A stretch of DNA of 64,000 nt from the IMG/VR virus record IMGVR_UViG_2585427757_000006; one strand, given 5' to 3'. Origin of the DNA: a virus (Duplodnaviria; Heunggongvirae; Uroviricota; Caudoviricetes). A program made the translations under genes and the position numbers. This document shows, piece after piece, positions 16,747 through 20,904 of the stretch (the first letter of the stretch is position 1; each line of letters begins with the position of its first letter). The notes beneath the pieces were generated by a model. The model saw only the letters and a list, made by a program, of their open reading frames with translations. It was not told the origin of the DNA and ran no database searches.

Positions 16747-17166
16747 TTACAACTTCTTAGCGCCCTTAAGTAGTGCGCTACGTACAAATTGAGCCGCTTT
16801 TTTCAAAGTTTCTTCACTGGTTTCACAGACAATCGGATCTTTCCACTTACCTGACACAGTGTTGAGAATATTGATTTGGTTGCTATCCAGACAAACAGAG
16901 ATATAAAGCACCGTGCCACCAGCCAGCATCAAATGCATAGGAAACAGAGGCTTTTTACTGCCTTCACTGAACTGAGACATGGCGATGTTAATGGCTTCAC
17001 CCACTTGTGTACCAACAAGCCCCTGCGCAGTTTCGAATATGGCACGAATAGCCAGACGAGCCTCTCGATCGCTCATAAGCGACCGGGAATGTTCGTCCGC
17101 TACACGAATCAAAGCCTCTGTTGTTTTCCGATCCAGTTCATCTTCAAGCAACATTTCACTAAACAT
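16747..17166 (-). CDS. hypothetical protein
   Basis: 139-aa ORF. Confidence 0.4.
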   Translation of the reverse strand: MFSEMLLEDELDRKTTEALIRVADEHSRSLMSDREARLAIRAIFETAQGLVGTQVGEAINIAMSQFSEGSKKPLFPMHLMLAGGTVLYISVCLDSNQINILNTVSGKWKDPIVCETSEETLKKAAQFVRSALLKGAKKL

Positions 17167-17227: not shown

Positions 17228-17872
17228 CTAATGAACGGTCACTCGGCCACAGAACCGGTTTTCTATCTTTTCTACAGCGTTATCTAGCATTCTCATCACT
17301 GATCTGGCTCTTGCTTCAACTGTGCGATACCGGTTGGAAACGACGAAGGTTTGCAGATCTCCCCTTTGCGGATGCAGGTGAATTTTTGTCAGTTCCCCGC
17401 ACATCAACGCATCAATACGAGCGACATACAGACGGTCTAATGATGCTCGTTGTAACCGCAAGTAATCTCGCTCTGAGAGAGCGACCCCCGGGCGTAGGCC
17501 AGCAATGGCGTTAAAGTTTGAAATAGCAGTTTTGTGGCAAAACTTTTCGATATCGAGGGCTAACTCAATACACCGATCTTCATTTGTATGGCCGACCAAA
17601 TCCAACGTGTAGGCCATAACATCAGCAGGTGTGCGATCGATAACAAAGCCTTCAGCACCACGCGTAAGTAGCTCTATATGCTTTGCGATTTCCATTTGAA
17701 TCTGAAGCCGCTCATATAGAGGCATAGAATCACCTACTCGAACACCGAGGCGGCTCATCAAACTTCCGACACCAGCATCCACGTAAGGGATTCCGTAATG
17801 TTTGTCGATATATTTAGCCAGGGTTGTTTTCCCACTGCCCTGAGCACCAGTGATCCCAATCCGGTAATCCAT
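17228..17872 (-). CDS. P-loop nucleotide kinase (deoxynucleoside monophosphate kinase-like)
   Basis: Walker A GITGAQGSGKTT at N-terminus; located in nucleotide-metabolism block. Confidence 0.5.
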   Translation of the reverse strand: MDYRIGITGAQGSGKTTLAKYIDKHYGIPYVDAGVGSLMSRLGVRVGDSMPLYERLQIQMEIAKHIELLTRGAEGFVIDRTPADVMAYTLDLVGHTNEDRCIELALDIEKFCHKTAISNFNAIAGLRPGVALSERDYLRLQRASLDRLYVARIDALMCGELTKIHLHPQRGDLQTFVVSNRYRTVEARARSVMRMLDNAVEKIENRFCGRVTVH

Positions 17873-18348
17873 TACGACCTTCTGTATACGATCTGCGAAA
17901 AGCCAGGCTCTTCCTCGCTGGCTCGTTGGGTATAAGCTGTTTCAACAGGCACAAAGCCTAAATTACGCATCATGCTTGCCGGGAAGAATGCATCGGCGTT
18001 TGGCACATCAACGCCGATGTGGGAGAGCCAAATCTCTTCAACATGCGGCATGAATAGCGAGTAAATTTGTTCCCCGCCAATCACCCACACAGGCTCTGGT
18101 AATCGCAACACATCATCCACACCAGCAGGGTAGAATCCATTTGGTACAAAGCCATGAGAGCGCGTCAAAACGAGGTTATGACGCTCTGGAAGAGGGCGTT
18201 TGAGACTTTCCATCGTTTTACGCCCCATAACGACAGTGGCGTTTTTGGTGAGTCTCTTAAATAGCTTCAGATCGGTAGAACAACGCCAGGGCAGTTCGTT
18301 CGCTATGCCGATTTCATAGTTACGGCCAACAGCAGCTATCATCTTCAT
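17872..18348 (-). CDS. folA: dihydrofolate reductase
   Basis: MIAAVGRNYEIG, LPWRCSTDLKLFK, VVMGRKTMESL, VIGGEQIY resemble DHFR. Confidence 0.85.
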   Translation of the reverse strand: MKMIAAVGRNYEIGIANELPWRCSTDLKLFKRLTKNATVVMGRKTMESLKRPLPERHNLVLTRSHGFVPNGFYPAGVDDVLRLPEPVWVIGGEQIYSLFMPHVEEIWLSHIGVDVPNADAFFPASMMRNLGFVPVETAYTQRASEEEPGFSQIVYRRS

Positions 18349-18758
18349 TTGCTCACCTCATAGATGACCGGTCTATGATGAGAGTCAGCTAAAGCGGCAC
18401 GGAGTCGAGGATCGTGCACCAGCGCAGCGATAAGCAGATCGCCTTTATGCTCCGCTAATGTGCGCTTAATATGCTTCTCATAACTAGTGCTATTCGGTAC
18501 GAGGTGAAGCCAGTCGTAATCAACACCAAAATCTTTCAGCCATCGTTTAGTGGGCGCTTCAAGAGTTTCAGAGCGGCTACTGATAAGCACCACTTCAGCC
18601 CCTGAGCGAGCAAAACCACGCAACATACGGCTGGTGGGGAAAATGAGTTCATCACCGGCAATGAATTGGCCTGCATCCGAGTCAGATACAGATTTACGAT
18701 GGCTGGTATTTGCCAGCACACCTTCAATTTCGCATAAGACATACATACCTCTTGCCAT
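18345..18758 (-). CDS. HAD/5-prime-nucleotidase-like protein with atypical motif I
   Basis: VLCEIEGVLAN aligns to nucleotidase DMDGVLAD scaffold but with C-x-E in place of D-x-D; start set at MARGM, one nucleotide after thyA stop. Confidence 0.35.
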   Translation of the reverse strand: MARGMYVLCEIEGVLANTSHRKSVSDSDAGQFIAGDELIFPTSRMLRGFARSGAEVVLISSRSETLEAPTKRWLKDFGVDYDWLHLVPNSTSYEKHIKRTLAEHKGDLLIAALVHDPRLRAALADSHHRPVIYEVSK

Positions 18759-18759
18759 A

Positions 18760-19890
18760 TCACACCGCCACTGGAACCTTGATCCACGGTAGAGGGGCAT
18801 AGCCAAGAATAAGAATCTCGTCCCATTTGAAATCATCCAGCTCAGACCATTCATTAGGGAATATAACGACCGGATCTGAATGCTCTGGAGCCTGTCGTTG
18901 CATTAGCTCACACACACCTTCCATGTGGTTGTTGTACAAATGCACGTCAAAGCCAAAATGCACAAATGCACCGGCCATGTGACCCGTAATCTTCGCGAGA
19001 AAATGAGTGAGAATGCCATAGCCAGCAATATTGAATGGCATACCAACAAAAGTGTCTACGCTACGCTGTACGAGGCAGGAGTTGAGGATGCGTTTGGGGA
19101 TTCCAAGTTCATCCAGTTCAGCTTCAGTAACACTGCCGTCTATCTCCAGATCGTATAGCATCTTGGTGTAGATAGACTCGTAACCGAGGCGACTGTGTTG
19201 AAGACCAATGTCAGTTGCCATCGTTAAACGGGTTTCAAAATCCAGCTCACGACTCCACAAAGAGAAGACAAAGTGGCAAGGTGGCAGTTTCATATCCTCA
19301 AGCTCGCCTACGTTCCATGCGTTAAGCATGATGCGACGATCGGTAGGGTTCGTGCGCAGTGTATCGACAATACGCTGTAGCTGATCGATTTCACGGGACA
19401 GCACTACGCGATCTTCACTGATACCCAGGTATCCCTCGACTTTGTACCCGCGTTCACGGAAAGTAGCGATCTTGCTCAGATATTCACTATGGCTCACGAT
19501 GCGGGTATCTTCCCATCGACGCCACTGCTTACCGTAAACCGGCCCCAAATCGCCATTCTCATCGGCCCATGCATCCCAAATCTTAACGCCGTTATCCTTG
19601 AGAAATTGGATGTTGCCCGTGCCTTTCAGATACCACTCAAGTTCGACAAGCAGTGGCTTAAGATTTACCGCCTTTCCAGAAATAAGCGGCACAGTCCCAC
19701 CAGTAAGCATGTAGTAAGAGGGAACGTAGCAGGTGCTTAAAGTACCAGTGCCTGTGCGATCATCAGCCTGCACGCCGCTTTTAAGCACCGTCTCAATAAC
19801 TTTTGCATACGATGCGTTTGTTACCTGACCGTTCGTATGCTCACGATTCAAAAGGAGTGACACAAAAACCTCACAAAGATAAGTAACCAC
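18760..19890 (-). CDS. thyA: thymidylate synthase with two internal insertions; start codon uncertain
   Basis: DRTGTGTLS, WADENGDLGPVYGKQWR, RRIMLNAWNVGE, PPCH, MPFNIAGY, C-terminal PLPWIKVPVAV; track ORF begins at a GTG. Confidence 0.85.
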   Translation of the reverse strand: MVTYLCEVFVSLLLNREHTNGQVTNASYAKVIETVLKSGVQADDRTGTGTLSTCYVPSYYMLTGGTVPLISGKAVNLKPLLVELEWYLKGTGNIQFLKDNGVKIWDAWADENGDLGPVYGKQWRRWEDTRIVSHSEYLSKIATFRERGYKVEGYLGISEDRVVLSREIDQLQRIVDTLRTNPTDRRIMLNAWNVGELEDMKLPPCHFVFSLWSRELDFETRLTMATDIGLQHSRLGYESIYTKMLYDLEIDGSVTEAELDELGIPKRILNSCLVQRSVDTFVGMPFNIAGYGILTHFLAKITGHMAGAFVHFGFDVHLYNNHMEGVCELMQRQAPEHSDPVVIFPNEWSELDDFKWDEILILGYAPLPWIKVPVAV

Positions 19891-19927: not shown

Positions 19928-19955
19928 AGACCAGACAGATAAAAAAATGGTGGCC
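19928..19955 (-). terminator. rho-independent terminator
   Basis: tggtggcc-loop-ggccacca hairpin followed by seven T on the minus strand. Confidence 0.6.
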
Positions 19956-20034
19956 ATAGGCCACCAAAAACGAATAGTTGTTTCAGAAATTTAACGCGCC
20001 AGCGCAATATACACAGATAGATAACTACCTACAA

Positions 20035-20904
20035 TTATTTTTTGATCATTCCGTACATTGCTGAGGCTTTAGCTTGCTCAACAAAGGAGGATAAATCGAC
20101 ATCACTATAGGTTGGAGACTTCAGAATCTTTCCATCGGAAATTCGAAAACCGATCATCTTATCGGTGCCATCAGCATGGCGAAATCCCAGGTCAGAAGAG
20201 TCGTATTTGCAGTTGGCCACAGCATGGCGACGCTCTTCGGCATCTGCAGGCCATAATTTTGTCATGTTGGACCGATGAATTTCGCCAACCAGCTCGACGA
20301 CATTGATACCGAGAAAATCAGCCAGTCGATAAGTCATCATGCACGCCACATAGATTTTGTTCATTACACGGCGCAGTTCCTGAATCAGCTCAGAATCCTT
20401 AACAGTCTTCTTCTCAAGTTTATCTGCCAGCTCTTCGAGCATACATGACGCCTCACGAGCTTCCTGAAATGGCATTGCCATATCATCGAAAACAGTGTTA
20501 CCAGGCACAAAAATTGTCTGCATAAAGCGATCAATGCTCTGTTCCTGCGTGTAATAAGTCATGCCGGTAGAAATACCACCTTTGATGGCGACCATCGTAC
20601 CAACACCAACGTATAAAAAGTCGGCCATTGCATCCAGCAGTTGCTCAATATCCCCATTCATTGCGGCTGGAATACCTTCCACTACAGCTTCTTCATGAAT
20701 CAGGCTTGCACGGAGACGAAGCAGCTCTGGTGTCGGCATAACGCGTCTCGGATGCTGGAAGAGTTCATGAAACTGATCGACCATCTTGTAAATACTTTCA
20801 GTGGCTACACCATGGCCTTCATGCAACTCATATGGTTCTGGCTTAAATCCAATGAGTCGATCGGTGGCAAGTTTCAGGTGGTCAGTCAGTTTGGTAAAGT
20901 TCAT
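20035..20904 (-). CDS. hypothetical protein, possibly MazG/HisE-like nucleotide pyrophosphohydrolase
   Basis: 289-aa ORF between thyA and nrdB; acidic helical EE-x-D pattern only weakly suggestive. Confidence 0.3.
   Translation of the reverse strand: MNFTKLTDHLKLATDRLIGFKPEPYELHEGHGVATESIYKMVDQFHELFQHPRRVMPTPELLRLRASLIHEEAVVEGIPAAMNGDIEQLLDAMADFLYVGVGTMVAIKGGISTGMTYYTQEQSIDRFMQTIFVPGNTVFDDMAMPFQEAREASCMLEELADKLEKKTVKDSELIQELRRVMNKIYVACMMTYRLADFLGINVVELVGEIHRSNMTKLWPADAEERRHAVANCKYDSSDLGFRHADGTDKMIGFRISDGKILKSPTYSDVDLSSFVEQAKASAMYGMIKK

Follow-up and report, generated by a model that had tools for sequence, protein, structure and literature searches.

The 64,000-nucleotide (nt) Caudoviricetes sequence IMGVR_UViG_2585427757_000006, referred to here in its whole length as the window, matches SSU5-like phage-plasmids. 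On its minus strand, a small HAD-like gene lies between a thymidylate synthase gene (thyA) and a dihydrofolate reductase (DHFR) gene, which is followed in turn by the gene for a P-loop protein (Table 1). The HAD-like open reading frame (ORF), whose translation starts MARGMYVLCEIEGVLAN, is the subject of this analysis. The TGA stop codon of thyA (18762-18760) is separated by the single nucleotide 18759 from the ATG of the HAD-like ORF at 18758, the TGA of the latter overlaps the DHFR start codon in the sequence ATGA (18348-18345), and the TAA of the DHFR gene overlaps the start of the P-loop gene in the sequence TAATG. These spacings of +1, -4, and -1 nt suggest translational coupling along the four genes. 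An earlier annotation of this DNA (the original prediction) had described the gene as tightly coupled within a thyA-DHFR operon, with its start one nucleotide past the thyA stop, and the junction sequence bears this out. An alternative in-frame ATG at 18854 on the minus strand opens a 169-amino-acid ORF (18345-18854) that runs over the end of thyA, and longer starts have been chosen by some gene callers (P0008, 151 amino acids; P0184, 163 amino acids). The start at 18758 is supported by the orthologs, because their N termini align at M-A-[RK]-G-M.

Table 1. Genes and sequence features of the HAD-like locus in the window
Feature	Position	Strand	Remarks
MazG-like nucleotide pyrophosphohydrolase	20035-20904	minus	upstream of thyA in every syntenic locus
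thyA	18760-19863	minus	ThyA-family thymidylate synthase; PF00303, 2.6e-78; PDB ThyA matches
HAD-like ORF	18345-18758	minus	137 amino acids plus stop; PNKP-type phosphatase fold, degenerate catalytic motifs
Motif I region, V7-L-C-E-I-E-G-V-L-A16	18711-18740	minus	from profile, HMM, and MAFFT alignments
Cys9 codon	18734-18732	minus	hydrophobic position ahead of nucleophile
Glu10 codon, GAA	18731-18729	minus	at nucleophilic Asp position
Glu12 codon, GAA	18725-18723	minus	at acid/base Asp (Asp+2) position
His20-Arg21	18696-18701	minus	as in canonical HAD_PNKP (Arg in 120/124, His in 92/124)
Thr42-Ser43-Arg44-Met45...Gly48	18615-18635	minus	N-terminal part of helix 40-51
Motif II equivalent, Ser60-Ser61-Arg62	18573-18581	minus	aligned to canonical S-G-R
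Motif IV equivalent, His115-Asp116	18411-18416	minus	aligned to Pnkp1 D-D
C-terminal H-x-x-P...Y, His127-Tyr133	18360-18380	minus	Pro130 invariant; syntenic clade only
DHFR	17872-18348	minus	PF00186, 1.6e-34
P-loop protein	17228-17872	minus	AAA_28; nucleoside/nucleotide-kinase fold
139-amino-acid conserved protein	16747-17166	minus	phrog_5373, function unknown; no Pfam match

The top Pfam match of the HAD-like protein is PF25109 (HAD_PNKP; E value, 8.1e-5; 23.2 bits), under the 27.6-bit gathering threshold of that family, and there is also a weak match to PF24694. Of 13 clade members, 6 have PF25109 as their top family, with a best E value of 1.9e-13. In PHROGs, the best family is phrog_5387 (function unknown; 2.9e-89), and the next ones are families labeled "polynucleotide kinase" (phrog_415 at 1.4e-8). 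A profile built from 15 family members retrieved a single significant PDB protein, Pnkp1 (4xrp; E value, 1.9e-5). An AlphaFold2 model computed on the 15-member family alignment scored well (predicted local distance difference test [pLDDT], 89.8; predicted TM score [pTM], 0.86) and has strands at residues 5-10, 55-63, 83-87, 108-114, and 131-134 in a HAD Rossmannoid fold. Foldseek matched this model with probability 1.0 to many HAD phosphatases, among them the phosphatase domains of Pnkp1 (4xru; E value, 1.6e-8; TM score normalized to the query [TMq], 0.82) and of T4 Pnkp (5uj0; TMq, 0.81; TM score normalized to the target [TMt], 0.78). The next matches were class B/C acid phosphatases, plant vegetative storage protein (VSP), and the Nir2 LNS2 domain, while the viral structural neighbors were polynucleotide kinase-phosphatase (PNKP) or "phosphatase" proteins.

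The predicted structure thus confirms the HAD fold that had been proposed originally, and the profile search gave no placement outside it, the best family being itself HAD. The more specific proposal of a 5'(3')-deoxyribonucleotidase did not hold up. That family (NT5C; PF06941) has no Pfam match at an E value of ≤10 in the window protein or any of the 13 clade members, and NT5C structures are absent from the PDB sequence matches and from the top 50 Foldseek PDB matches. NT5C proteins belong to the same superfamily and share a similar D-x-D-G-V-L-A and a nucleotide context, but the window protein shows no profile or structural preference for them. Its nearest subfamily is the HAD domain of polynucleotide kinase-phosphatases, which Pfam, PDB sequence, and Foldseek searches all prefer. 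This homology is supported despite the subthreshold PF25109 score because of the profile match to Pnkp1 and the structure. The protein is a single domain without a P-loop and so lacks the fused 5'-kinase of the T4 Pnkp type.

A search of 1.84 billion representative proteins returned 358 relatives, just 18 of them below an E value of 1e-10; the retrieved relatives were aligned to the family hidden Markov model (HMM), and 124 canonical homologs were counted. All 124 have Asp in the columns of residues 10 and 12, where the window protein has E10-I-E12 in place of D-x-D. The same register was obtained from three alignments, namely, the profile alignment to Pnkp1 (4xrp), which sets VLCEIDDVLA against VICDLDGTLS, the HMM with its 124 canonical homologs, and a MAFFT alignment. 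Glu10 is also the final residue of the predicted first β strand (residues 5-10), the usual site of HAD nucleophiles. Because the Asp columns, the pairing with Pnkp1, and the end of strand β1 agree, the motif is E-x-E, Glu10 and Glu12 having replaced the nucleophilic and the acid/base Asp, with Cys9 at an ordinary hydrophobic position.

The degeneracy of motif I had been recognized in the original prediction, but it was read there as C-x-E with Cys in the place of the nucleophile, which is off by one; the GVLA pairing used there itself sets E-I-E beneath D-M-D. Cys is the commonest residue in the residue-9 column of the canonical D-x-D homologs (54 of 124, followed by Phe in 39 and Val in 21), and orthologs have Val or Ile instead of Cys9, which leaves no ground for unusual chemistry through this residue. 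Cys9 was therefore rejected as a substitute nucleophile on the strength of the three alignments and of its frequency in canonical enzymes. An NT5C-like enzyme with a Cys nucleophile is barely credible: the G-V-L-A after motif I does resemble the NT5C motif, and the operon is one of deoxynucleotide metabolism, but the alignments put Cys9 one position too early and NT5C matches are absent.

Catalytic motifs other than motif I are altered as well, in the window protein or in its orthologs. T4 Pnkp holds the phosphate covalently on Asp165 and uses Asp167 as acid/base; Ser211 and Lys258 are its phosphate contacts, and Asp165 together with Asp278 binds Mg (PMC3592404). Motif II of the window protein has the expected Ser/Thr in the form of Ser60, a position at which orthologs have S, T, C, D, or E. 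In motif III, the canonical GDxRxD...K loop is 7 to 11 residues shorter in the lineage that carries Glu at the nucleophile position (here, the Glu lineage); Lys95 or Lys98 could stand for the motif III Lys, and neither is conserved in the clade. The acidic pair of motif IV is reduced to one Asp in the window protein, and orthologs have CS, AS, RT, TT, RS, or SS there. The H-D form is limited to the closest group. Most members of the Glu lineage have no motif IV Asp, those at 42 to 55% identity having CS, AS, RT, TT, or RS instead.

Other residues have been gained or kept. The Glu lineage shares with the canonical enzymes the conserved residues His20-Arg21, Asp36, Thr70/Trp73/Leu74, and Tyr81-Asp82, and it has clade-specific conserved residues of its own, namely, Thr42, Arg44, Met45, Gly48, Phe49, Ser52, Gly53, and Pro130. 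The stretch from Thr42 to Gly48 is invariant in the Glu lineage and variable in canonical enzymes and is a candidate for a new functional surface; where the clade-specific residues lie with respect to the former active site is judged from the topology of the predicted fold. The C-terminal H-x-x-P...Y motif is absent from canonical HAD_PNKP proteins, and a C-terminal H-P-H-x-P is common to all close relatives, as is the genomic position.

These differences stand out against the nearest known proteins. The best match by both sequence and structure is the phosphatase domain of Pnkp1, a component of the Pnkp1/Rnl/Hen1 RNA-repair complex, with which the window protein shares the order of motifs I to IV, the Cys ahead of the nucleophile, T-x-x-[WF]-L, Y-D, and the position of S-G-R. 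In Pnkp1, the corresponding elements are D-L-D, a Lys-bearing motif III loop, and D-D-R, and a kinase domain is fused to them; in the window protein, they are E-I-E, a motif III region of reduced length, and H-D-P, and the kinase domain is absent. The 3'-phosphatase domain of T4 Pnkp (1ltq, 2ia5, and 5uj0) has the same predicted fold (TMq, 0.79 to 0.81; TMt, 0.78 to the isolated domain) at 12 to 14% identity; unlike in T4 Pnkp, the counterparts of Asp165 and Asp167 are Glu, and the equivalents of Ser211, Lys258, and Asp278 are poorly conserved in the clade. Of the same size (about 140 to 165 amino acids), single-domain organization, and family are the stand-alone HAD_PNKP proteins of phages such as Escherichia phages Golestan and Jk06, which are annotated as "acid phosphatase" or "polynucleotide kinase." Unlike the window protein, they keep the canonical [CFV]-D-[ILV]-D-G-T-L-A, [ST]-G-R, GDxRxD...K, and [DE]-D-R, and none of those inspected lies within a ThyA-DHFR operon.

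The nucleophile position was surveyed in a MAFFT alignment of close syntenic relatives, where it takes five states. Asp is found in four metagenomic proteins (P0045, P0191, P0193, and P0068), in which S-G-R and the Lys of motif III are likewise intact. Glu characterizes the Escherichia/Salmonella/Klebsiella phage-plasmid lineage together with P0040, Thr is found in Moellerella P0044 and in P0190, Ala in P0043, and Gly in P0047. The motif reads E-x-D in many orthologs and T-x-D, A-x-D, or G-x-T in others, and the lineage with Thr, Ala, or Gly has Asp or Glu in place of the motif II Ser. Glu10 is encoded by GAA or GAG and Thr by ACC or ACG depending on the lineage, and since these synonymous codons differ between lineages, the Glu and Thr states have each lasted through the divergence of lineages. 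A HAD_PNKP relative beyond the syntenic clade, P0150, likewise has Glu at the nucleophile position (IFIEIDGIIS), so the change from Asp to Glu may have arisen more than once in the family.

This raises the question as to whether the window protein is still a phosphatase, with Glu10 as nucleophile or Mg ligand and Glu12 as acid/base, possibly with an altered activity or specificity, for example toward a deoxynucleoside monophosphate (dNMP) or a 3'-phosphate end. The Glu lineage keeps Glu10 throughout, with synonymous codon variation, the +2 acid is retained almost everywhere, and Ser60, Arg62, His20-Arg21, Lys98, and Asp116 are all present in the window protein; moreover, P0045 and P0193 occupy the same genomic position with D-x-D, S-G-R, and the motif III Lys intact. 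We nonetheless regard an active enzyme of this kind as unlikely. Thr, Ala, or Gly replaces the carboxylate in orthologs at the same position, and the Glu lineage combines the deleted motif III loop with the loss of the motif IV Asp described above. Replacement of the HAD nucleophile Asp by Glu inactivates characterized enzymes, as in the D8E variant of β-phosphoglucomutase. A dNMP phosphatase would also oppose the adjoining steps that form thymidylate (dTMP) and the kinase step. Catalysis through the glutamyl carboxylate together with Glu or Asp at position 12, by way of a glutamyl-phosphate intermediate or as a new reaction of the thymidylate pathway, would make the invariant Glu10 a working residue and would have no known parallel among HAD proteins; it is very improbable because of the Thr, Ala, and Gly orthologs and because close relatives have lost motifs III and IV.

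The decay of catalytic residues has not been accompanied by decay of the gene. The HAD-like gene alone is 100% identical to an Escherichia coli O169:H41 plasmid, and 686 plasmid records of PLSDB contain it (Klebsiella, 310; Escherichia, 194; Enterobacter, 88; Salmonella, 49; and others), with an intact ORF in 685 of the 686 matches at ≥80% coverage. Relative to SSU5, the number of nonsynonymous substitutions per site (dN) is 0.099 and that of synonymous substitutions (dS) is 1.41, giving a dN/dS of 0.070, compared with 0.056 for the DHFR gene and 0.022 for thyA. In relatives down to 42% identity, 24 alignment columns are invariant. The HAD-like ORF is therefore a real gene under purifying selection and not a chance ORF. 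The different ways in which the catalytic residues decay by lineage could also be expected of a functionless gene that is kept as a spacer for translational coupling, but this is extremely improbable, being contradicted by a dN/dS near that of the DHFR gene at a dS of about 1.4, by the invariant columns, and by the intact ORFs.

The neighborhood of the gene is conserved. Every recovered locus has a MazG-like gene and a long thyA before the HAD-like gene, and an AAA_28 P-loop protein, a protein of 135 to 153 amino acids of unknown function, and an RNase T-like exonuclease downstream; the unknown protein of the window, from phrog_5373, always lies between the P-loop gene and the exonuclease. A ribonucleotide reductase lies further upstream in syntenic loci, and the ThyA-HAD-like adjacency is kept in eight loci. 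Wider contig scans gave few loci (one viral, one metagenomic, and two genomic); L008 is an unrelated actinophage canonical HAD. In five sampled lineages with Glu, Thr, or Ala (the window, L003, L007, L009, and L011), the next gene after the HAD-like one is that for DHFR. At the loci of the D-x-D orthologs (L005, 6001-6435; L010, 4001-4435), the P-loop gene follows directly, with no DHFR gene between. With two lineages against five, this correlation between DHFR and a non-Asp residue may reflect a single event.

The ThyA of the window has two insertions (residues ~119 to 157 and ~205 to 261), which are present in all syntenic orthologs, and every catalytic residue of the E. coli enzyme is invariant. 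The "ThyX" label in the Cyrano record is a misannotation of this ThyA-family enzyme. We also considered an ancestry in thymine replacement by 5-hydroxymethyldeoxyuridine, as in SPO1-type phages, in which the ancestral module would have comprised MazG-like, ThyA-like, active HAD, and kinase proteins, with the phosphatase dying once true thymidylate synthase and DHFR arose. There is no support for a hydroxymethylase in this history, because the ThyA proteins of the D-x-D and non-Asp groups do not differ in their catalytic residues and share the two insertions.

The DHFR is 91% identical in amino acid sequence to that of SSU5, whose gene has been named dfrA51 and is reported to make E. coli trimethoprim resistant upon expression (PMC12217456). 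The GxxGxGKT, D-R-T, and R-x-x-R motifs of the P-loop protein are invariant, and it weakly resembles thymidylate, deoxyguanosine, and adenylate kinases. It probably phosphorylates (deoxy)nucleosides or nucleotides and so completes a module for thymidine triphosphate (dTTP). Database records label it "AAA family ATPase" or "ABC transporter ATP-binding protein." That it might form a split Pnkp with the HAD-like protein two genes upstream was rejected, as it matches AAA_28 and nucleotide-kinase models and not the Pnk kinase. With its MazG-like, ThyA, DHFR, and kinase-like genes, the operon thus codes for part of the route to dTTP. In the gap between the MazG-like gene and thyA lies a terminator-like hairpin (19948-19966, minus strand; stem of 8 bp, 6 of them GC, ahead of a T run), and no strong sigma-70-like promoter was predicted in this gap. 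The hairpin suggests that the thyA, HAD-like, DHFR, and kinase-like genes may be transcribed separately from the MazG-like gene or else depend on read-through.

This setting bears on a further explanation, in which the protein binds nucleic acid 3'-phosphate ends or a nucleotide without catalysis and serves DNA or RNA repair or counterdefense instead of dTMP synthesis. Its closest relatives are end-healing phosphatase domains, and the His-Arg after motif I and Arg62 are kept as in canonical HAD_PNKP proteins. The conserved neighborhood, however, is wholly nucleotide metabolic, with ribonucleotide reductase, MazG-like, ThyA, DHFR, and kinase-like proteins and no ligase or Pnk-type kinase nearby, and the phosphate-contacting Ser and Lys vary across the clade. 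A PADLOC search gave no match, and membership in a defense system was rejected on that result. We consider an end-binding role improbable.

Our preferred explanation, which we think probable though by no means secure, is that the HAD-like protein is a pseudo-phosphatase, a PNKP-type HAD protein that forms no phospho-aspartyl intermediate and has been selected for a noncatalytic role tied to the thymidylate module. It has a phosphatase fold with a mutated catalytic motif, as pseudo-phosphatases do, and a noncatalytic protein is the most likely outcome because the key catalytic residues are lost. The original prediction had offered a pseudo-enzyme or regulator as one of its alternatives, and the degenerate motifs and the decay across orthologs favor it. 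The protein would have descended, as a stand-alone HAD domain, from the 3'-phosphatase domain of polynucleotide kinase-phosphatases. Its phospho-aspartyl apparatus would have been lost through the replacement of the two Asp residues by Glu10 and Glu12 and the shortening of the motif III Lys loop, and the Mg-binding motif IV would have been cut to His-Asp, disappearing altogether in near relatives. The analysis establishes the fold, the replaced residues, the purifying selection, and the synteny; we infer that the protein no longer hydrolyzes phosphate esters. Purifying selection would then keep it for a noncatalytic role in the operon with which SSU5-like phage-plasmids make dTMP and dTTP, possibly as a binding or adaptor subunit whose translation is coupled to that of ThyA and DHFR. 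Such an adaptor or ligand-binding role is suggested by the close spacing of the genes, their synteny, and the newly conserved surface residues, and an adaptor might act via the clade-specific helix 40-51 and the C-terminal H-x-x-P loop.

There are precedents in principle. Tim50/TIMM50 uses a HAD fold in a noncatalytic role (PMC13216928). Together with the LNS2 domain of Nir2, which has been crystallized with phosphatidic acid, and plant VSP, it belongs to a set of proteins with degenerate or missing HAD catalytic motifs and binding or noncatalytic roles. These proteins are eukaryotic and belong to other HAD subfamilies, and the analogy implies no shared function.

Several observations weigh against a pseudo-phosphatase. 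The window protein has a chemically similar residue at every catalytic position (Glu10, Glu12, Ser60, Lys95 or Lys98, and Asp116), and for that reason a residual or altered activity is conceivable. The invariance of Glu10 extends across the Glu lineage down to about 42% identity, which suggests that a carboxylate at this position matters, unlike what would be predicted for a purely structural relic. In addition, no natural fusion to ThyA, DHFR, or the kinase was seen.

The fold and family of this protein were already known, and its similarity to Pnkp had been noticed by some annotators: two phage records name the ortholog "polynucleotide kinase" or "polynucleotide kinase/phosphatase," and the annotators of Cyrano call it a "T4 Pnkp homolog." All 25 PLSDB records listed among the 686 label it "hypothetical protein," and no paper in the literature collection searched discusses the gene. 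As far as our searches show, what is new is the catalytic degeneracy of a widespread phage-plasmid ortholog group and the range of residues (D, E, T, A, and G) that its syntenic members show where the nucleophile is expected. The two "polynucleotide kinase" labels probably overstate the ability of the protein, and the idea of an NT5C nucleotidase should be dropped. The D/E/T/A/G orthologs offer a clean natural series in which to study the passage from phosphatase to pseudo-enzyme. Clinical Enterobacteriaceae commonly carry SSU5-like phage-plasmids, and the overlapping downstream DHFR gene belongs to the dfrA50/dfrA51 group, for which trimethoprim resistance has been reported (PMC12217456). A conserved protein that is coproduced with ThyA and DHFR could affect the working of that module.

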